DNA from: Candidatus Hydrogenedens sp.
Lineage (GTDB): Bacteria > Hydrogenedentota > Hydrogenedentia > Hydrogenedentales > JAEUWI01
DNA length: 64,000 nt
NCBI GenBank assembly: GCA_016125095.1
Contig: WGMK01000010.1
Location: forward strand, 438,149-502,148
Direction: 5' to 3'
Positions 736 to 11,140 of this stretch are shown piece after piece. How positions within the stretch are numbered: the stretch's first letter is position 1; each line of letters opens with the position of its first letter. The translations under genes and the position numbers were made by a program. The notes under the pieces were generated by a model. It did no database searches, had not been told where the DNA came from, and was given only the letters and a program-made list of their open reading frames with translations.

Positions 736-2148
736 ATGGCGAAGAACATTTACGAGAAGATCTGGGACGCGCATGTGGTGGCGCAGCCCGAGGGCCAGTC
801 GGCGATTCTTTATATCGACCGGCACTACGTGCACGAGGTGACCTCGCCGCAGGCCTTCGAGGGCCTCCGCCTGGCCGGCCGCAAGCTCCGCCGCCCGGAG
901 CTGACCTACGCCACGATGGACCACAACATCCCCACGACGGACCGCAGCCTCCCCATCCGCGATGCGCTTTCGAAGCAGCAGGTGGAAACCCTCAAGGCCA
1001 ACTGCGATGAATTCGGCGTGACCTGTTTCGACATGCACGACCGCCGCAACGGCATCGTGCACGTGGTGGGGCCCGAGCAGGGCCTGACCGAGCCGGGCAT
1101 GACGATTGTGTGCGGCGATTCGCACACCTCGACCCACGGCGCCTTCGGCGCGCTCGCCTTCGGCATTGGCACCAGCGAAGTGGAGCACGTGCTCGCCACG
1201 CAGACGCTTTTGCAGAACAAGTCGAAGACGATGGAGGTGCGCGTCGAGGGCGAACTCCCCACCGGCATCACCGCCAAGGACATCGTGCTCGCCATCATCG
1301 GCAAGATCGGCACCGCCGGCGGCACGGGCTACGTCATCGAATACACCGGCGAAGCCATCCGCGGCCTCAGCATGGAAGGCCGGATGACCGTGTGCAACAT
1401 GAGCATCGAGGGCGGCGCGCGCGCAGGCCTCATTTCGCCCGATGAAAAGACCTTCGCCTACCTCGAGGGCCGTCCCTATTTGCAGAACGGCATCAGCCAT
1501 GCCGACCGCGTGGCGAAGTGGAAGACCTTCGCCAGCGACCCCGGCTGCACCTACGACGCGACCGTGGTGCTGCAGGCCAGCGAAATCGAGCCGCAGGTGA
1601 CCTGGGGCACGTCGCCCGGCATGGTAACCGGCGTAAGCGGCCGCGCGCCCAAACTGGACGAGGCGCGCGACGACAGCGAGCGCAAGACCTACAAGAACGC
1701 CCTCGAGTACATGGGCCTCAGCGAAGGTCAGGCCATCCAGGACATCACCATCAACAAGATGTTCTTCGGCTCCTGCACCAACGGCCGCCTCGAAGACCTG
1801 CAAGCCGCCGCCAAGGTGGTGAAGGGCCACAAGGTGAACCCGTCCATCGAACAGGCGCTCGTCGTGCCCGGCAGCCACGAAGTGAAAGAACAGGCCGAAG
1901 CGCTCGGCCTCGACCAGATCTTCAAGGACGCGGGCTTCGAATGGCGCGAGGCCGGCTGCTCCATGTGCCTCGCCATGAACGACGACAAGCTCAACCCCGG
2001 CGACCGTTGCGCCTCCACCTCGAACCGCAACTTCGAAGGCCGCCAGGGCAAAGGCGGACGCACCCACCTCGTCAGCCCCGCCATGGCCGTCGCCGCCGCC
2101 ATCAAGGGCCACTTCGTCGACATCCGCGACTGGGAGTTTAAGGCCTAG
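736..2148 (+). CDS. leuC: 3-isopropylmalate dehydratase large subunit
   Basis: 470 aa; the N-terminus [15 protein letters not shown] and the aconitase-family Fe-S ligand region ([28 protein letters not shown]) are typical of LeuC. Confidence 0.93.
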
Positions 2149-2171: not shown

Positions 2172-2206
2172 CCGCCGCGGTCCGCAAGGGTCGCGGCGTT
2201 TTTTAC
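2172..2206 (+). terminator. putative rho-independent terminator downstream of leuC
   Basis: GC stem cgccgcg...cgcggcg followed by the T-run ttttttac, immediately after the leuC stop. Confidence 0.45.
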
Positions 2207-2271: not shown

Positions 2272-2301
2272 TTGACAAAGTTTGCCAACTAGGATGATAC
2301 T
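2272..2301 (+). promoter_or_regulatory. putative sigma70 promoter with palindromic operator upstream of parD
   Basis: TTGACA, a 17-18 nt spacer and GATACT. The near-palindrome gttgacaaa-g-tttgccaac overlaps the -35 element. RBS AGGAGA lies 7 nt before the parD ATG. Confidence 0.4.
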
Positions 2302-3223: not shown

Positions 3224-3958
3224 ATGTCTGAGGAAATCTTGCCGGTGAATCCGCAAGAGCGGGTAATACGATTCATGTTGCCGCCCGCGGCCACTGGCTC
3301 TCCGCTTCGAACGGTATGGTTCTCACCCTACGCGACCGGGCTGCGGATTCGTGAAAAGGCGAGCATGCCGGAGGTGGCGATCATATTGTGCCTCCTGCCG
3401 GGCGTTGCTGCGGCGGCTGCCGCGTTCTCGAGCATGGGTTTTGGGGGCGCTTCCGGCGGACTCGCCATCGGGCTTGCGGTCGGCGCGTTCTTCTCGGCGC
3501 TCCTAGTCGAGCTGGTAGCCTTGGCCCCCTACGCCTTTATCGCGCACCTCTTGCAGGCTGGCATGAAAGGTACGTCGAATTTCTGGACGACCTTTACGGC
3601 TTGCGTGTTCGGCATGCTTCCCTTGCTCTTTGCGGCCATATTCATGATTGCCGCGACGGGACTCATGGGTAGGTTTGCCGGGTTACGAGTCATGGACAGT
3701 TATGCGGCAGATCCCTATATGGCATTTCTGCCATTCTTTGGCGGGCTTCTGACCGTTCCCGTGTTCTTGATCGCATCCATTTGGAACCTCGTGGCCCTCT
3801 CCAATACCCTTGCCGGTGCGGCCCAGTTGCCCCCTTGGACGGGGTTTGGTATCTATACCGGTAGCTACGCGTTGGCCGCGTTCCTGCTTCCCTTCATTTT
3901 GCCGTTGCTGATGTTTCTTCCGTTCTTGTCGATGCTGCCGATGATGGCCCAATTCTAA
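3224..3958 (+). CDS. multi-pass membrane protein (5-6 TM), unknown family; paralog of 4067..4789
   Basis: 244 aa, very hydrophobic. A cytoplasmic N-terminus carries the motif VWFSPYATGLRIRE, which is shared with the downstream paralog. Confidence 0.6.
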   Translation: MSEEILPVNPQERVIRFMLPPAATGSPLRTVWFSPYATGLRIREKASMPEVAIILCLLPGVAAAAAAFSSMGFGGASGGLAIGLAVGAFFSALLVELVALAPYAFIAHLLQAGMKGTSNFWTTFTACVFGMLPLLFAAIFMIAATGLMGRFAGLRVMDSYAADPYMAFLPFFGGLLTVPVFLIASIWNLVALSNTLAGAAQLPPWTGFGIYTGSYALAAFLLPFILPLLMFLPFLSMLPMMAQF

Positions 3959-4066
3959 CCGCCAGCGGCGTTCAGGATTAGACGGGCCGCCGCCTTCGGC
4001 CGGGAGCACGATCTTTGCGATTGTGGTCTAGGCGCGGAGGGCTGCGGAACGGAGTGAGGTTGTCGA

Positions 4067-4789
4067 TTGCCCGAAGACGCGCCAAAGAGTTCCGCCGAAA
4101 CGGCAGAGACCCCTAGCCGATATTGGCCTATCGTGGGGCTTTGGTTCGAGCCCTACAAGACGGGGCTTCGGCTGCGCAGCGTGGGTAGCGTGCCGTTTGC
4201 GGCGCTCGTCTTCGTCCTGGATCTTATCGTCTTGGCGGCTCCGCTGGTGCTGGTTTTGTCGTTCGCCTATCGTGAGCTCGAATATAGCAGGCTCGGGCAT
4301 ACGGGTCCGGTTGCCATCTCGACGCTGCCTCTCGGAGGGATACTAATTGCAGCGATTGTTATGGCAATCGCCTCCATCGATCTCCTGCAACGTCTGCTTG
4401 GTGGTGTCGGCAGCCTTCGCAGCGTCTTTATGGCGATCACCTACGGGATACTGCCGGCGCCGACCTGGGCGTGCATCGCGGCGGTGTGGCTGATGGGGAT
4501 GCATCTCCAAGATAAGTGGTATCTTGAAGAACATCCTGAAGTGCGCATGATTCGGGAAGATATGCCAATGGCCGGGGCAGTAGTGGTCTTTAATTTTCTT
4601 ACGCTTTGGGCGCCGCTATTCGCCTTCATCGGGCTGGCTTCTACCGCCATCACATCGACGCAACTCCTTCGCGGCGTGACCGGGTTGCGCATGCCGTGGG
4701 TGCTCACGATGATGGGGGTGGGGGCGTTGTTGGCCCTGGGAGTCGTCGTGTTGAGCCTCCAGTATGCCGTGATTCCCATCGAACGCTAG
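4067..4789 (+). CDS. multi-pass membrane protein, paralog of 3224..3958
   Basis: 240 aa, with a TTG start per the ORF track. The N-terminal motif LWFEPYKTGLRLRS matches the upstream paralog, and there are 5-6 TM helices. Confidence 0.55.
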   Translation: MPEDAPKSSAETAETPSRYWPIVGLWFEPYKTGLRLRSVGSVPFAALVFVLDLIVLAAPLVLVLSFAYRELEYSRLGHTGPVAISTLPLGGILIAAIVMAIASIDLLQRLLGGVGSLRSVFMAITYGILPAPTWACIAAVWLMGMHLQDKWYLEEHPEVRMIREDMPMAGAVVVFNFLTLWAPLFAFIGLASTAITSTQLLRGVTGLRMPWVLTMMGVGALLALGVVVLSLQYAVIPIER

Positions 4790-4897
4790 ATACGCGGTCG
4801 TCGAAATGGGAATGCAGGTGGGCCGCGGCCCGCCTACAAGTGCGCTTATTCCGGTGTAGGGCTGACAGGCGGGTCTGGTAGGGCTTATACTGAGACG

Positions 4898-5320
4898 GTG
4901 AAAGACGGCTTTCCCCCGAAATCAAAAGCCTCCACTTGGAAGAAGGAAATCGGTTTCGCCGTGAGCAACACCGCGCGACAGACGTCCATCGAATCCGGCC
5001 AGATAACGGCACTGGTGAAGGCCGCGGTGCTCGGCATCGCGCCGGACGCGGAGGTGTATCTCTACGGCTCCCGCGCGCGGGGCGATTTTCAGCCGGACTC
5101 GGATTGGGATTTTCTCGTGCTGTGTGATGAGGGTGAGCGCCGCGAAGTGAGAGAGAAAGTCCGGAGCGCCGTGCATGAGGTCGTCTTTGAGGTCGGTGCC
5201 GCTTGCGGGACATGGCACAGCATTTCGACGATTGTGCATTCGCGCGACCATTGGCTGCGCCCCCTGATTCAAGCCACTCCGTTTCACCGTGAAGTCTCTC
5301 GTGACGGTATCGCATTGTGA
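4898..5320 (+). CDS. minimal Pol-beta-type nucleotidyltransferase (MNT/SMODS-like)
   Basis: 140 aa; the motif [22 protein letters not shown] matches GS-x9-DxD of the Pol-beta NTase superfamily. The size is typical of minimal NTases. Confidence 0.7.
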   Translation: MKDGFPPKSKASTWKKEIGFAVSNTARQTSIESGQITALVKAAVLGIAPDAEVYLYGSRARGDFQPDSDWDFLVLCDEGERREVREKVRSAVHEVVFEVGAACGTWHSISTIVHSRDHWLRPLIQATPFHREVSRDGIAL

Positions 5321-5524
5321 GCCCCGAGGAGCACAACGTCGCAGGCCAAAGGCGGAAGCCTTTGTAGCAGAGGTCGGCGACTTGGTGAGACGGTTGAAGT
5401 AATTTTCACACTCGTGCAGGAACTTGATGGGCAGGTGCGTTTACTCCGGTGTTGGTGCAATCAGGTCCGCGCTATCTGTGAGGTATTATTTTGGCCATGG
5501 AACCGAAGGAGACATTAGCCCGTC

Positions 5525-6385
5525 GTGAGTGATTTTGTACGAGGTTCGCTAGCCAGTACGCATGCAATTCCGTCGTTGGTAAAGGTGGCAGTACAAAAGC
5601 TCATACCGGATGCGGACGTATACTTGATTGGTTCCCGTGCTCGGGGAGATTTCGAGTCAAATTCCAATTGGGATTTTCTGGTGCTAACGCCCCGTGTTCT
5701 CGACTGCGACGAACTGGAAATACTCGAAGCCGCGATTTCTGACGCAGCGTCTGACTGGCGCCTGACTGCGAACGAGTGGCACGAGATCGATCCCAAGGTG
5801 TATTCGAATGAATACTGGAGCCGTACTGCTGTAAGGATGACGCCATTTCATCGGTGGATTTCCAATGAGGCGATCCACGTATCAGATGGTCTTCCGCTCA
5901 GTGAGGCTTTTCCAGCAGGAGCCCCCTTGCCGGAGCCGTTGCCGGGATCGGAACTTTCGCCGGTGGAGAAGTTGCTGGCAAGGCGGTGGGCAGAACGTGC
6001 ACTCCGAACCGCCCGTTATCTCGAAATGCAGTGCGACGAATCTAACTCGCCCTGCGCGATCGAGGTCGGGAGCTACGCATTCTTTGAGTTAAAGCGCGCG
6101 CTGTTGCATACCGACAGAATTCGTTTCTGCCGGGATGCCCTGAGATGGGAAAGCGCTGCCGAGAGGTATCTCGACTCCGGCATCGTTTCTCCGGAAAGCG
6201 CGAGCGTTTTCCGCGCCATTTACGAGGCGAGTGATGAGGGTACGGTCGATCTTGGAGGAGTAGTCTATGATGGACGCGCCCCCCGATTAGTGCGGTTGGT
6301 GCGGGCCGCAGTCGATGAAGTCGCCGCAATTGTATATAATAGGACGCCTCCGCCGTGGGCGGACCCCGAAGAACTCAAGGAATAA
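5525..6385 (+). CDS. Pol-beta-type nucleotidyltransferase paralog with a ~170 aa C-terminal extension; catalytic DxD replaced by NxD
   Basis: 286 aa; [22 protein letters not shown] is paralogous to the upstream NTase but has N-S-N-W-D in place of D-S-D-W-D. It ends 4 nt before the leuD ATG. Confidence 0.7.
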
Positions 6386-6389
6386 GACG

Positions 6390-6992
6390 ATGCAGAAGTT
6401 TACGACGTTGGAAGGCGTGGCGGTGCCGCTTGAGGCGCAGAACGTGGATACGGACCAGATCATCCCGAAGCAGTTCCTGAAGCGGATCGAGCGGACGGGG
6501 TATGAGGACATGCTGTTCTTCGACTGGCGCTACCAGGAAGACGGCGTGACGCCGAATCCGGAGTTCGAGCCGAACCAGCCGCGCTATCAGGGCGCCTCGA
6601 TTCTACTCACGCTGGACAATTTCGGCTGCGGGTCGAGCCGCGAGCATGCCCCGTGGGCGCTGGACAACTACGGCATCCGCTGCATCATGGCCCCGAGCTA
6701 TGCCGACATCTTCTACAACAACTGCTTCAACAACGGCATGCTTCCCATCGTGTTGCCGGGCGACGTGGTGCGCGGGCTGATCGCGGACTGCCGCGCGGCC
6801 GAGGGCTACACGCTTTCGGTGGACCTGCCCTCGCAGACGATTACGAAGCCGGACGGCGGCACGATTCCCTTCGAGCTCGACGGCTTCCTGAAGGAGCGCC
6901 TGCTCAACGGCTGGGATCAGGTCGGGCTGACGCTCCTGCACGAGGACAAGATCGCGGCCTACGAAGCGGCGCGCGGCATGGCGGCCGTATAG
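6390..6992 (+). CDS. leuD: 3-isopropylmalate dehydratase small subunit
   Basis: [37 protein letters not shown] is the canonical LeuD N-terminus. The ORF-track start at 6315 is probably too far upstream. Confidence 0.9.
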
Positions 6993-7003: not shown

Positions 7004-7303
7004 ATGCCGAACTACACCTATCAGGTTATCCACGAGGACGGCAGCGAGGGGGAGTACTTCGAGTACACCCAGCGCATGAGCGAGCCGCCGCTGACCGAGC
7101 ACCCCGACACCGGCGAGAAGGTGGTGCGCGTGTTCAGCGTGCCGCACATCGCCGGCACGGCGAACGAGCGCATCCAGAAGCAGATCATGCACGACAAGAA
7201 TCTGGACCGCCTGGGTTTCACCAAATACGTGAAGAACGGCAAGGGCCAGTACGAGAAACACGTCGGCGACAGCAAGGCCCCGGACACGCTGTCGGCCGAT
7301 TGA
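7004..7303 (+). CDS. FmdB-family (zinc-ribbon regulatory protein) homolog lacking the Cys ligands
   Basis: MPNYTYQ...FEYTQRMSEPPLTEHPDTGEKVVRVFS aligns with the FmdB consensus MPIYEYRC..CGHRFEVLQKMSD.PLTACPECGGEVRRLIS. All four Cys positions are substituted (V/H/T etc.). Confidence 0.55.
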   Translation: MPNYTYQVIHEDGSEGEYFEYTQRMSEPPLTEHPDTGEKVVRVFSVPHIAGTANERIQKQIMHDKNLDRLGFTKYVKNGKGQYEKHVGDSKAPDTLSAD

Positions 7304-7358: not shown

Positions 7359-8336
7359 TCAGACCTTCACGTAGATGTTGTTGCGCTTGAGGTAGAGCGC
7401 GACGACGTAGCAGACCGTGTAAAAGGCGGCGAAGGAAAGCAGGGCCCAGGCGGCGCTGGCGCTTTCGTCTACCAGGAACGCGCCGTGCAGGCCGATGAGC
7501 GCGTATTGCAGCACGTAGAGCACCAGCGGATTCGAGCCGAGGGTCGTCAGGTGGGGCAGCTGGATGCGGGCGCGGTCGCAAAGCAGGTGGAACGCGGCAT
7601 AGGCCAGGAACGCCATCCCCGTCGAGAGCAGCGCGTAGGGCGAGGTCATGTAGTACTGGCTCTGCGGCCAATGCGGCTTGATGCCGGGCCACGTCGCCTC
7701 GAGTCCCCAGCCCAGGGCGCACAGGCCCAGGCCCCATCCGAAGAGTCCCAGCGCCACGCGGCGCGCGTCGGGGCGTTCCGCGATATCCTGGCAGAGCGTG
7801 CCGAAGAGCAGGATACCGGCCCAGCTGAGAATGCCCAGCGGTCCGCCATTGAAGCTGTTGTGCATCACCCATTCGCCGTAGGGCGTGAGGCTGAAGACGG
7901 CTTGATACGCGCCGATACAGCCGAAGGCGGCCAGCGCCCGGGCGCGGGTGCCCAGCGCGATGAAGGGCAGCGCCACGAGGCCGCCCGCGCCGATATCCAC
8001 CAGCGCGTCCCACCAGTTCTCATAGTCGATCGGGTTGTAGAGCACGATGCCGATGAGCACGAGGATAGCGTAGCGTCGCGCGGCCGAGCCCAGCGCGCCG
8101 AGCAGGCCCATCGCTTCCACGCGCCGCCGCAGCGAAAGCCGGAAGCCCATGCCCACCACGAAGATGAACGCGGGCGCGATGGTGTCGGCGTAGCTGAAGC
8201 CTTCGCGGTGGTGCTTGAACTGCCACGGCATCACCTCGAACTGCCCCAGGAAATTCACAAGGATCATGCCGAAGATGGCATAGCCCCGGAACTGGTCGAT
8301 AGAGGCGATGCGGCGCGGGGGAGACGTCGCTTCCAC
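7359..8336 (-). CDS. DUF1624/DUF5009 membrane acyltransferase-like protein (heparan-alpha-glucosaminide N-acetyltransferase-like)
   Basis: 325 aa; the motif DQFRGYAIFGMILVNF with multiple TM helices is typical of this family. Confidence 0.65.
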   Translation of the reverse strand: MEATSPPRRIASIDQFRGYAIFGMILVNFLGQFEVMPWQFKHHREGFSYADTIAPAFIFVVGMGFRLSLRRRVEAMGLLGALGSAARRYAILVLIGIVLYNPIDYENWWDALVDIGAGGLVALPFIALGTRARALAAFGCIGAYQAVFSLTPYGEWVMHNSFNGGPLGILSWAGILLFGTLCQDIAERPDARRVALGLFGWGLGLCALGWGLEATWPGIKPHWPQSQYYMTSPYALLSTGMAFLAYAAFHLLCDRARIQLPHLTTLGSNPLVLYVLQYALIGLHGAFLVDESASAAWALLSFAAFYTVCYVVALYLKRNNIYVKV

Positions 8337-8343
8337 GCCGGGG

Positions 8344-9765
8344 CTACTTCTTCTTGGGGCGGTAGATGTGGGTGGCCGTGCCGAAGATGGAACCGGCCGC
8401 CTCCATGAGCGCCTCGCTCAGCGTGGGGTGCGCATGGATGGTCAGGTCGATATCGCTGGCGGTGGCGCCCATTTCGATGGCGAGCGTGGCCTCGGCGATG
8501 AGTTCGCCCGCGCCGGCCCCCGTGATACCCACGCCCAGCACTTGGTGCGTGTCGGGATCGCTGATGATCTTGGTCACGCCCTCGGTACGGTTCAGCGTGG
8601 TGGCGCGTCCCGAGGCAGCCCAGGGGAACCGCGCCACGTCGACCTTGCGGCCAGCCTTTTTGGCCTCGCCCTCGGTAATACCGACCCACGCGATTTCCGG
8701 ATCGGTAAACACGACGCAGGGAATGGCTTGCGGCTCGAAGGCCGCGTTGTGTCCCGCGATGACTTCCGCCGCCACGCGGCCCTCGTGCGAGGCCTTGTGG
8801 GCGAGCGCCGGGCCTTCCACGATATCGCCGATGGCGAAGATGTTGGGGTCCGACGTGCGGCGCTGAATATCCACCTCGACAAAGCCGCGGTCGTTCACCT
8901 TCACCTTGGTGTTGTCTAGCCCGAGGCCGCTCGAGTTCGGCTTGCGGCCGATGCAGATGAGTACCTTGTCGAACACACGCTTGGGCTTCTTGATGCCCTC
9001 GCCCTCCAGCGTCACCTTGAGCCCGTTCTTCTGGTGCTCCATGTTCGTGACCTTGGTGTTCAGCAGGATCTCCTCGAAAATGCCCTCGACGCGCTTGGCC
9101 AGCGGACGCACAAGATCGCGGTCGCAGCCGGGCAGCAGGCCGTCGGTCGCTTCCACCATCGTGATCTTCGATCCCAGCGCGGCGTAGACCGTGCCGAGTT
9201 CGAGGCCGATATAGCCGCCGCCGACCACCAGCAGGTTCTCGGGCACGTCGTCCAGGCGGAGCGCGCCGGTGCTGTTCATGATGTAGGGCGACTGGATAAG
9301 CGGCGGCAGCAGTGTGGGCCGCGAGCCCGCCGCGAGGATGCTCTGCTGAAACTTGACGATCGTGGTGGCGCCGCCGACGGCGGTCACGCTGATGGTCTTC
9401 GAGTCGTCATAGGCGCCTCGGCCGCGTACGAAGCGGACGCCGCGCGCCTTGCAGAGCTGGCCCAGGCCGCCGGTCATCTGCTGCACCACTTCCTTCGTGG
9501 CGGCGCGCACGCGGTCTACGTCGATTTCCGGCTCGGCGAATTTCACGCCGAAGTGCGCGGCCTCGCGCGCGGCGGTAATCACATGCGCCACGTGCAGCAT
9601 CGCCTTCGAGGGGATGCAGCCCTTGTACAGGCAGGTGCCGCCGGGATTCTCCTCCGTGTCGATCAGCGTCACATCGAGGCCCAGATCGGCCGCCATGAAC
9701 GCGGCCGCATAGCCCCCGGGGCCGCCGCCCAATACCGCTACCTGTGTTTCAATCGTCTCGCTCAT
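8344..9765 (-). CDS. lpdA: dihydrolipoyl dehydrogenase (E3)
   Basis: 473 aa; FAD motif VLGGGPGGY, redox-active disulfide GGTCLYKGCIPSK and the C-terminal HAHPTLSE motif are present. Confidence 0.92.
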   Translation of the reverse strand: MSETIETQVAVLGGGPGGYAAAFMAADLGLDVTLIDTEENPGGTCLYKGCIPSKAMLHVAHVITAAREAAHFGVKFAEPEIDVDRVRAATKEVVQQMTGGLGQLCKARGVRFVRGRGAYDDSKTISVTAVGGATTIVKFQQSILAAGSRPTLLPPLIQSPYIMNSTGALRLDDVPENLLVVGGGYIGLELGTVYAALGSKITMVEATDGLLPGCDRDLVRPLAKRVEGIFEEILLNTKVTNMEHQKNGLKVTLEGEGIKKPKRVFDKVLICIGRKPNSSGLGLDNTKVKVNDRGFVEVDIQRRTSDPNIFAIGDIVEGPALAHKASHEGRVAAEVIAGHNAAFEPQAIPCVVFTDPEIAWVGITEGEAKKAGRKVDVARFPWAASGRATTLNRTEGVTKIISDPDTHQVLGVGITGAGAGELIAEATLAIEMGATASDIDLTIHAHPTLSEALMEAAGSIFGTATHIYRPKKK

Positions 9766-9820: not shown

Positions 9821-11140
9821 TCAGGCGTCGAGCCAGAGCGTCCACGGCTGCTCGAGCGTCTGCGTGTACCACTTCATGAAGCGCGCGGCGTCGGCGCCGT
9901 CGATGAGGCGGTGGTCGTACGAGAGCGTCATCGGCATCATGAGGCGCGGGGCGAAGCCGCCGTTCTCAAACACTGGTTCCACGGCCGCGCGCGACACGCC
10001 GAGGATGGCCACCTCGGGCGCATTGATGATGGGCGTGAAGCCCTGGAAACCCGGGCCGCCCACGCCGCCGAGGTTGGTAATCGTCATACACGCGCCCTGC
10101 ATCTCGTCCAGCGAAAGTTTGCGGTCGCGCGCCTTGGCGGCCAGCTGCGGCACTTCGATGGCGATATCGAGCAGGCTCTTCTGGTCGGCGTCCTTGATGA
10201 CGGGCACTAACAAGCCGGCGGGGGTATCTACCGCGACGCCGATGTTCACGTAGTCCTTCATCAGGACTTCCTGCTTCTCGACATCGAAGCTGGCGTTGAA
10301 CTTGTGGAAGCGGCGGAGCGCCTCGGCCATCACCTTAATCAGGAAGACGGTTACCGTCAGCTTGCCGCCGCCGGATTCGAACTGCTTGCCGTATTGCTTG
10401 CGGATGTCCTCGAGCTTGGTAATGTCGGCCTTCTCGAAGTGGGTGACGTGGGGGATGGTCGACCAGCAATAGGCCATGTGCTCCACGGTCTTCTTGCGGA
10501 CGGCGTTCATCGTCTCGCGGCGCACAGGGCCCCACTTGCCCGATTCGACCGGGCCGGATGGCGCGGGGGCCGGGGCGGCCTTGGCGGCCGGGGCGGCCGG
10601 AGCAGCCGCCGCCGGGGCAGGCGCGCCGCCCTTGGCGAAGGCCATCACATCCTGCGCGGTCACGCGGCCCGAGGGATCTGCCGTGGGCACTTCGTTCAAT
10701 TCCACGCCAAGTTCGCGCGCGAGTTTGCGCACCGAGGGTGAGGCCAGCACGGGCGTACCGGCAGCGCGCGGCGCGGCGGCCGGTCGCTCCAGCACTTGCA
10801 GGCTGGGCTTCGGGGCCGGTGCGGGCGCTTGCTTGGGCTGTTCGGGCTCCGATTCGGGGGCGGCCTCCTTGGCTGGGGCGGGTTCCGACTTCGCCGGGGC
10901 CGCGCCGCCTTCATACGAAAACAGCGGCTGGCCCACCTTCACCACGTCGCCTTCCTTCACGGAGATCTCGGTGATCTTCGCATCGGCGGGGGCGGTGATC
11001 TCGGTCACGGCCTTGTCGGTCTCGATTTCCAGCACCGCCTGGTTCTTGCTGACGGAATCGCCCGCCTTCACCAGTAGACGCCCAATGGTTCCGGAGGCGA
11101 TGTTCTCGCCCAGCTCGGGAAGTTTGAATACGGTGGCCAT
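9821..11140 (-). CDS. aceF: dihydrolipoamide acetyltransferase (E2) of pyruvate dehydrogenase complex
   Basis: 439 aa; an N-terminal lipoyl domain (IETDKA), an Ala/Pro-rich linker, an E3-binding domain and the catalytic domain (DHRLIDG). Confidence 0.9.
   Translation of the reverse strand: MATVFKLPELGENIASGTIGRLLVKAGDSVSKNQAVLEIETDKAVTEITAPADAKITEISVKEGDVVKVGQPLFSYEGGAAPAKSEPAPAKEAAPESEPEQPKQAPAPAPKPSLQVLERPAAAPRAAGTPVLASPSVRKLARELGVELNEVPTADPSGRVTAQDVMAFAKGGAPAPAAAAPAAPAAKAAPAPAPSGPVESGKWGPVRRETMNAVRKKTVEHMAYCWSTIPHVTHFEKADITKLEDIRKQYGKQFESGGGKLTVTVFLIKVMAEALRRFHKFNASFDVEKQEVLMKDYVNIGVAVDTPAGLLVPVIKDADQKSLLDIAIEVPQLAAKARDRKLSLDEMQGACMTITNLGGVGGPGFQGFTPIINAPEVAILGVSRAAVEPVFENGGFAPRLMMPMTLSYDHRLIDGADAARFMKWYTQTLEQPWTLWLDA

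Follow-up and report, generated by a model that had tools for sequence, protein, structure and literature searches.

A composite islet with a predicted class II HEPN/MNT core between leuC and leuD in a Candidatus Hydrogenedens genome

The stretch of DNA considered here (the window) covers 64,000 nucleotides (nt) of a metagenome-assembled genome (MAG) of Candidatus Hydrogenedens sp., a member of the Hydrogenedentota (GenBank assembly GCA_016125095.1, contig WGMK01000010.1, positions 438,149 to 502,148 of the forward strand). Within it, a 4.2-kb islet extends from leuC to leuD. Its guanine plus cytosine (GC) content is lower than that of the surrounding DNA (0.54-0.61 in the block and 0.63-0.69 in the flanks). 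The open reading frames (ORFs) of the islet are all read from the + strand and specify, in this order, ParD, ParE, two membrane proteins with several transmembrane (TM) segments (TM1 and TM2) and two nucleotidyltransferases (NTase1 and NTase2). An initial annotation had interpreted the TM and NTase genes as a defence or conflict module in which orphan NTases need the TM proteins as effectors. Features and their scores are collected in Table 1, where loci used for comparison are designated by L and a number.

The two NTases and the HEPN-type tail of NTase2

NTase1 and NTase2 are paralogues, as recognised in the initial annotation. They align over about 120 residues with 40% identity (E 2e-26) and share the LVKxAV core quoted there. 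Both match the Pfam families NTP_transf_2/Polbeta and the PADLOC candidate family PDC-S09. Their proposed relationship to MntA also holds: the best solved relatives are HI0073 (the top match for NTase2) and the minimal nucleotidyltransferase (MNT) antitoxins, and both proteins match the NCBIfam MntA_antitoxin model, with scores (32.2 bits for NTase1 and 19.3 bits for NTase2) that stay below its equivalog cut-off of 60 bits. The description of both as minimal NTases with a DxD motif applies to NTase1, in which the active-site motif GS-x10-DWD is kept, but not to NTase2, a protein of 286 residues with a HEPN-type tail and the degenerate motif GS-x10-NWD.

NTase1 can be read from position 4898. 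Its start is probably the GTG codon at 4961 (giving 119 residues), since this codon lines up with the start codons of NTase2 and of the orthologue in the related locus L165, and since a promoter-like site which L165 also has is found about 70 nt upstream of it. NTase1 shares 58% identity with each of the MNTs of L165 and L007, and both of these are followed by a separate PF05168 HEPN gene. The comparison with L165 gives a synonymous divergence (dS) of 1.05 and a ratio of nonsynonymous to synonymous divergence (dN/dS) of 0.32 and, judged by this ratio, NTase1 is under purifying selection. No HEPN remnant was found in any intergenic frame between NTase1 and NTase2.

The initial annotation reported that no HEPN partner was evident. 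On the strength of sequence comparison, the missed partner is the C-terminal 143 residues of NTase2 (residues 144-286). This segment and the 143-residue Pfam-HEPN protein which L165 encodes as a separate gene have 38% identity (E 2e-20) and a near-identical C-terminal tail. Residues 19-273 of NTase2 align end to end with a fusion of NTP_transf_2 and HEPN in L006 (E 1e-21), and the protein also aligns end to end with the Pfam-verified fusions of L029 and L033. A profile built from 57 HEPN partners aligns with the tail in register and, at 7.2 bits, its score was reached by none of 3000 shuffled sequences. The assignment of the tail to PF05168 is transitive, passing through the L165 protein, which has a precomputed PF05168 match; direct Pfam and PDB sequence searches with residues 142-286 returned nothing. 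A single-sequence AlphaFold2 (AF2) model of NTase2 reached a predicted local distance difference test (pLDDT) score of 45, and its top Foldseek matches are HEPN proteins. These matches are not significant and provide a lead only.

Both halves of NTase2 have lost conserved residues. Of 90 NTase ORFs surveyed, it is the sole example with NxD, the first Asp of DWD being replaced by Asn (the search pattern permitted N at this position). The DxD pattern is found in 87 of the others, and two failed the regular expression, including an ORF at 2475-2807 of L017 that reads DWD by eye. In the HEPN subfamily the motifs NRLYYA, H-x-G and R-x4-DY are each 80-90% conserved. The L165 protein keeps all three and the tail of NTase2 has none; it reads ASDEGTV in place of R-x4-DY and so does not have the conserved Tyr, the presumed acceptor of nucleotidylylation. 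The tail also contains no R-x4-6-H, and RX4HXY is absent from the whole of NTase2. The sole R-x4-H in NTase2 (RMTPFH) is located at the end of the NTase domain, with Q in NTase1. The dN/dS of the MNT domain compared with L165 is 0.51. In all likelihood, neither half of NTase2 is catalytically active.

To place these proteins in a wider context, a degenerate-motif scan using one genome per species provided 79 loci with NTase relatives. In 67 of these, an ORF matching a single helical-protein (HEPN) profile lies directly downstream of the NTase or is fused to it (the four fusions are in L006, L029, L033 and L056), and all partners and fusions sampled belong to Pfam HEPN PF05168. At least two NTase ORFs are present in 10 loci (nine that were fetched and L001, which is the contig of the window itself). 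Tandem MNT copies are therefore not unusual in this NTase family.

Pairs of PF05168 and PF01909 proteins without the RX4HXY RNase motif constitute class II HEPN/MNT (Yao et al. 2020, PMC7641770; PMC11586414). They were predicted by Makarova and Koonin in 2009 and defined in Yao et al. 2020 (PMC7641770). Class II pairs keep GS-x10-DxD and a conserved Tyr; they are biochemically unstudied and toxin/antitoxin behaviour has been shown for none (PMC7641770). Because 67 of the 79 related loci pair the NTase with a PF05168 HEPN, we attribute the window NTases, by sequence, to this widespread predicted toxin-antitoxin-like module. A described counterpart, which the initial annotation could not provide, is thus recognised through the PF05168 pairing. 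In common with other class II modules, the window has an MNT that carries GS-x10-DxD (NTase1) and, downstream of it, a PF05168-type HEPN without RX4HXY, which gives the order MNT, HEPN. The window differs in several respects. Its HEPN forms a fusion with a second MNT that arose by duplication; in this fusion NWD takes the place of DWD, and the Tyr conserved in class II is among the residues that have been lost. The intact MNT, NTase1, is not accompanied by a separate HEPN gene, and the module is inserted in the leuCD operon.

Two other HEPN/MNT groups are comparable in part. FhepTA (Shewanella SO_1440, 276 residues; Yao et al. 2026, PMC13000451) has the layout of NTase2, in which a short linker joins an N-terminal MNT to a C-terminal HEPN, and like NTase2 it is derived from a two-gene form still present in close relatives. 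In contrast to FhepTA, which has an active R-phi-xxxH motif with an adjacent Tyr and a functional NTase motif, the HEPN of NTase2 is of the PF05168 type and both its NTase and HEPN motifs are degenerate. The window NTases and class I (type VII) HepT/MntA have in common the MntA fold family and the motif GS-x10-DxD; they differ in that NTase2 nowhere contains RX4HXY, the partner is PF05168 rather than DUF86 and the MntA scores are below the cut-off.

Loss of the conserved polar HEPN residues would also fit a role other than that of a toxin. NTase2 could have been repurposed as a small-molecule or protein nucleotidyltransferase resembling kanamycin nucleotidyltransferase (KNTase) and the other aminoglycoside nucleotidyltransferases (ANT), with the HEPN-like tail binding the substrate, as in kanamycin nucleotidyltransferase or HI0073/HI0074. 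The succession of an NTase and a helical HEPN-like domain is that of the aminoglycoside enzymes, HI0073 ranks first among the solved relatives of NTase2, and NTase1 shows weak ANT(9) and ANT(3'') matches. These matches reach only 12-25 bits compared with cut-offs of 193-550 and are limited to the core motif. In addition, the first metal-binding Asp of NTase2 is replaced by Asn, and the orthologous HEPN of L165 is a normal class II partner. We judge repurposing very unlikely.

The leuC-leuD slot in related genomes

L165 is syntenic with the window. The conserved order extends from Tag, by way of leuC, leuD and the genes for a zinc-ribbon and an HGSNAT-like protein, to the PDH genes. Window LeuC is 92.6% identical to that of L165 and 73-79% identical to those of L006, L017, L022 and L038; LeuD is 91% identical to that of L165. 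In 51 of 53 metagenome loci in which leuC lies upstream of a related leuD, the gap between the two genes is 0-203 nt. An MNT-HEPN occupies this position in L006, L017, L022, L038 and L165, and the accompanying genes differ from one locus to another (Table 1).

Table 1. Features of the leuC-leuD islet in the window and content of the corresponding slot in other loci. Rows that name a locus L give positions in that locus.
Feature	Position	Strand	Remarks
leuC	736..2148	+	470-aa ORF; left flank of slot
Terminator-like hairpin and T-run, 3' of leuC	2173..2198	+	11-bp stem with 9 GC pairs, then TTTTTT
Promoter-like site 5' of parD	2272..2301	+	TTGACA-N18-GATACT, 10/12; consensus match only
parD, antitoxin, 94 aa	2323..2607	+	Pfam ParD_antitoxin 36.9 bits (cut-off 21); TIGR02606 59.7 bits (cut-off 46.2)
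parE, toxin, 112 aa	2604..2942	+	Pfam ParE_toxin 27.4 bits (cut-off 23)
TM1, divergent Yip1-family 5-TM protein, 244 aa	3224..3958	+	Pfam Yip1 33.1 bits (cut-off 28.6)
TM2, TM1 paralogue, 240 aa	4067..4789	+	Orthologue of L165 TM gene
17-nt element, copy 1	4840..4856	+	GTGCGCTTATTCCGGTG; candidate operator or promoter element
Promoter-like site of MNT unit	4862..4891	+	CTGACA-N18-TATACT, 10/12
NTase1, intact MNT	4961..5320	+	Pfam NTP_transf_2 38.6 bits (cut-off 21), Polbeta 33 bits
17-nt element, copy 2	5435..5451	+	GTGCGTTTACTCCGGTG; second of two window copies, upstream of NTase2
NTase2	5525..6385	+	Intact ORF, 286 aa
NTase2, N-terminal MNT domain	5525..5884	+	Pfam NTP_transf_2 27.1 bits; degenerate GS-x10-NWD
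NTase2, C-terminal HEPN-type domain	5954..6385	+	Residues 144-286; degenerate
leuD	6390..6992	+	Pfam Aconitase_C 130 bits; right flank
Slot, L165			Yip1-like TM (57% to TM2), MNT, HEPN
Slot, L006			Single MNT-HEPN fusion; no TM gene
Slot, L017			MNT, HEPN, MNT, HEPN, small TM protein
Slot, L038			MNT, HEPN, small TM protein and an unassigned 140-aa ORF
Slot, L022	3006-3824 (PDC-S31-like gene)		PDC-S31-like gene (PADLOC defence candidate, DUF2971-like), MNT, HEPN, MNT, small TM protein, further TM ORF
Slot, L085	944-1972		Ca/Na antiporter
Slot, L090	3397-4794		Two unrelated ORFs; by eye, they look like a Uma2-type endonuclease and a SAM methyltransferase
Small membrane protein family, 95-102 aa, 2-3 TM	L017 3221-3511; L022 5130-5438; L038 3518-3805		Between MNT-HEPN array and leuD

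The slot is hypervariable. The DNA of the window matches that of L165 with about 88% identity as far as position 2141 and from 6311 onwards, and between these points the match falls to 70-81% or is undetectable. The right breakpoint at 6311 is located within the last 25 codons of NTase2/HEPN. Synonymous divergence changes in the same way: the flanks have a dS of 0.37-0.49, whereas TM2 reaches 1.14, NTase1 1.05 and HEPN >2. For the TM2, NTase1 and HEPN comparisons dN/dS is 0.27-0.37, compared with about 0.1 in the flanks. The genes in the slot would therefore be older or exchanged alleles which are still under selection. Such a pattern is typical of toxin-antitoxin and defence hotspots.

The general idea of a defence or conflict module thus retains part of its support, from the presence of ParDE and an MNT-HEPN, the lower GC content, the hypervariable slot and the PADLOC candidate in the L022 slot. 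The specific system of TM proteins plus NTases is not supported.

In L017, L022 and L038, a family of small membrane proteins is found between the MNT-HEPN array and leuD. It has no Pfam, NCBIfam or PADLOC match. Its most conserved stretch, LWP[VL]LG[FW]FF[ML]P[YF]T, is similar to the motif at the N-terminus of TM2 and of P0006, its L165 orthologue. The likeness is marginal, since 1-16 of 500 shuffled sequences reach the same score, and we do not claim homology between this family and the Yip1-like family (hhalign probability 1.9%). Directly downstream of leuD in L038, at 4845-5512, two overlapping ORFs of 84 and 138 aa have the appearance of a VapB/VapC-type pair by eye.

Membrane proteins and their relation to the NTases

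TM1 and TM2 are paralogues, as the initial annotation had proposed (29% identity, E 6e-9), and the N-terminal motif W-F-x-P-Y-x-T-G-L-R-x-R is present in both (VWFSPYATGLRIR in TM1 and LWFEPYKTGLRLR in TM2). Residues 30-222 of TM1 cover positions 2-170 of the 173 positions in the Yip1 profile (PF04893). TM2 by itself matches no Pfam model, including Yip1, and is placed in the family through its paralogy with TM1 and through its orthologue P0006 (L165 7001-7723), which has a weak precomputed PF04893 match and whose identity to TM2 is 57% along the full 240 residues. Hydropathy indicates five hydrophobic segments in TM1 and in its closest relatives, P0004 and P0005 (32% identity), and four clear segments (4-5) in TM2. 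The AF2 model of TM2 (pLDDT 69) is an all-helical membrane bundle whose long helices fit five TM segments; this fold has no match among solved proteins.

TM1 and TM2 are divergent members of the Yip1 family belonging to a very rare branch. TM1 shares with the prokaryotic Yip1 proteins (PF04893, clan CL0112) the five TM segments, the cytosolic N-terminus and a match to the full domain; the two proteins differ from the others in forming a very small, divergent branch. No prokaryotic member has a reported function (PMC6682643), and the published guess is that they are transporters, channels or receptors. The family was searched for in two ways, by comparing a profile exhaustively with 1.84 billion representative proteins and by a word-indexed search of 5.8 billion sequences. 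Only three other clusters were obtained: P0004 and P0005 from the first of these, and P0006 from a later profile search. The word-indexed search with TM1 and NTase2 as queries returned only the query proteins. These are weak negatives, since relatives were demonstrably missed: it did not find NTase1 from NTase2 (pairwise E 2e-26), nor P0004, despite the presence of P0004 in the query alignment. Metagenome and viral motif scans for the TM family found nothing, tblastn with TM1 and TM2 gave no match in plasmids and phages, and neither protein matched a defence model.

If TM1 and TM2 were the effectors which the NTases need, the two families should be found together elsewhere. Homologues of TM1 and TM2 are absent from all 79 NTase loci, 67 of which have the HEPN pairing described above. 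P0004 and P0005 stand alone, with no NTase neighbours; one is surrounded by RsbW/STAS and an AMP-binding enzyme and the other by an FAD-binding oxidase and a GGDEF protein. In one assembly of the Hydrogenedentota (JBJOID01), P0004 is on contig 270 and an MNT-HEPN whose MNT resembles NTase1 (58% identity) is on contig 52. Membrane proteins in general are not enriched around MNT-HEPN: they occur at 18 of the 79 loci and belong to assorted families. The one other locus where the two are found together is L165, in the same slot of a close relative. There, the TM2 orthologue again adjoins MNT-HEPN. As the two genomes inherited this slot from a common ancestor, they represent one observation and not independent co-occurrence. 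We infer that the TM genes are separately transcribed cargo, independent of the NTases.

A signalling system of another type was also implied, by comparison with SMODS, SLATT and CBASS-like systems: the NTases would make a nucleotide signal which gates TM pore effectors, with no HEPN involved, as part of a second-messenger defence resembling Hailong or CBASS. Hailong (the membrane channel HalA and the NTase HalB; Tan et al. 2025) demonstrates that such logic exists, and the window resembles it in that a membrane-protein gene adjoins a Pol-beta-type NTase gene on the same strand. NTase1 matches the NCBIfam HalB model (NF051895) with 27.9 bits. This match covers residues 54-86 only, a generic core of 33 residues, and is far below the cut-off of 190 bits; unlike Hailong, the window also includes a HEPN partner. 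With an E limit of 1, none of the four proteins matched SMODS, SLATT or a CBASS-like family in Pfam or PADLOC, and neither PADLOC nor NCBIfam identified CBASS, Hailong or any further named system. Moreover, the NTase family has the appearance of an obligate HEPN partner and one of the two NTases is without a catalytic Asp. A second-messenger system therefore seems to us extremely improbable.

Composition and history of the islet

Our preferred reading, to which we give a probability of about 60%, is that the region is a composite islet in a hypervariable leuC-leuD slot of a Hydrogenedentota lineage, with a class II HEPN/MNT core, and not a single TM-plus-NTase signalling system. Several points weigh against it. 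The Pfam HEPN model itself does not match NTase2. The inactivity of NTase2 is deduced from its residues, and an intact ORF of 286 codons with its own upstream element could indicate that a non-catalytic role has been retained. TM2 and its L165 orthologue are both found directly upstream of MNT-HEPN, despite a dS of about 1 in the cassette, and both stay intact and collinear (dN/dS 0.27). A membrane protein is present beside MNT-HEPN in five of the six slot genomes; two of these have a Yip1-like protein and three have an unrelated small TM protein, in which a short motif recurs from the N-terminus of TM2, with the marginal statistics given above. Finally, as class II HEPN/MNT is biochemically uncharacterised (PMC7641770), a third component is possible.

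Some of these points favour a system of three components, in which the Yip1-like protein would be the effector, sensor or membrane anchor of a class II MNT-HEPN and the duplications would represent diversification of a single system. The order TM, MNT, HEPN has been kept in the window and in L165 through deep divergence of the cassette, with the genes under purifying selection, and Hailong provides a precedent for pairs of TM and NTase proteins. Nevertheless, two close relatives and one slot amount to one evolutionary observation, and recombination through the flanks would carry any cargo as a block. The TM-to-MNT gaps of 170-260 nt hold a separate, conserved promoter-like site. L006 has an MNT-HEPN fusion without a TM gene, the TM family is absent from the 79 NTase loci, its other members P0004 and P0005 are alone, the two families are unlinked in JBJOID01, and hhalign gives no support to kinship with the small TM family. 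We consider a three-component system unlikely.

A broader proposal would give the class II MNT-HEPN of this lineage a dedicated membrane partner, either a Yip1-like protein with five TM segments (the window and L165) or a small protein with two or three (L017, L022 and L038), united by the motif WP[VI][LV]Gx[FW]FxPYxT and forming a membrane-coupled conflict system of three parts in the leuCD operon. If true, this would be the first functional context for both class II HEPN/MNT and the prokaryotic Yip1 proteins. We regard it as quite improbable, and the recurrent membrane-protein neighbours may be meaningless.

For the composite islet, the following history can be proposed. The ancestral slot of the sublineage would have contained a TM gene, the promoter-like site, MNT and HEPN, as in L165. 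In the window genome, MNT would then have been duplicated together with its upstream element. A 17-nt element, GTGCG[CT]TTA[TC]TCCGGTG, occurs in just two copies in the window, one 5' of each NTase (0.05 expected), and a near-identical element precedes the MNT promoter-like site in L165. As it is present upstream of both NTases, the duplication would have taken in the upstream region. The predicted promoter itself aligns with positions 7888-7917 of L165 (CTGACA-N18-TATAAT, 11/12). In a second step, the second MNT copy would have been fused in frame to HEPN to give NTase2, which would then have lost key residues of both halves. In a third step, ParDE and the second Yip1-like paralogue, TM1, would have been inserted upstream; the L165 slot contains neither a parD nor an orthologue of TM1.

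By analogy with class I HepT/MntA (PMC13000451, PMC11586414, PMC7641770), in the intact relatives the MNT would nucleotidylylate the HEPN Tyr and keep the HEPN inactive. As the acceptor Tyr and one catalytic Asp of NTase2 have gone, this circuit is probably disabled in the window, with NTase1 as an orphan MNT.

This attribution turns an apparent system of orphan NTases and TM effectors into a recognisable class II MNT-HEPN cassette, and indicates that, in scanning for such genes, a 'minimal NTase' that is longer than usual may conceal a degenerate HEPN tail. Compared with each other, L165 and the window offer a natural view of the states before and after the duplication of MNT, its fusion with HEPN and the loss of catalytic residues, which could guide experiments on class II HEPN/MNT. 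The slot also provides an example of an essential biosynthetic operon, leuCD, acting as host to toxin-antitoxin/defence-type cargo which turns over several times faster than the flanks.

The remaining genes of the islet, parD and parE, have the features of a type II toxin-antitoxin system, as initially annotated. Both proteins are above the curated cut-offs, including those of Pfam, and the genes form a two-gene operon with an overlap of 4 nt (from the coordinates). ParDE would be an ordinary addiction module.

At the borders of the islet, the ATG of leuD (6390) is located 4 nt past the NTase2 stop codon, and the hairpin 3' of leuC has a counterpart at 6742-6765 in L165, also 3' of leuC. Other hairpins, following TM1, TM2 and NTase1, were considered as terminators and dropped, their stability being similar to that of shuffled sequences (z -0.1 to -1.65). 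Rfam and tRNA scans of the islet gave no match, and no direct repeats that might mark an integration site were found at its flanks. The starts of TM1, TM2, NTase1 (4898/4961) and NTase2 are in one frame (position = 2 mod 3), which is probably a coincidence (about 1 in 27).

The neighbouring genes which are conserved in order with L165 are, on the left, a Tag-like adenine glycosylase (109-681) and, on the right, an FmdB-type zinc-ribbon protein (7004-7303), an HGSNAT-like membrane acyltransferase (7359-8336, - strand) and the lipoamide dehydrogenase and E2 component of a 2-oxoacid dehydrogenase complex (8344-9765 and 9821-11140, both - strand).

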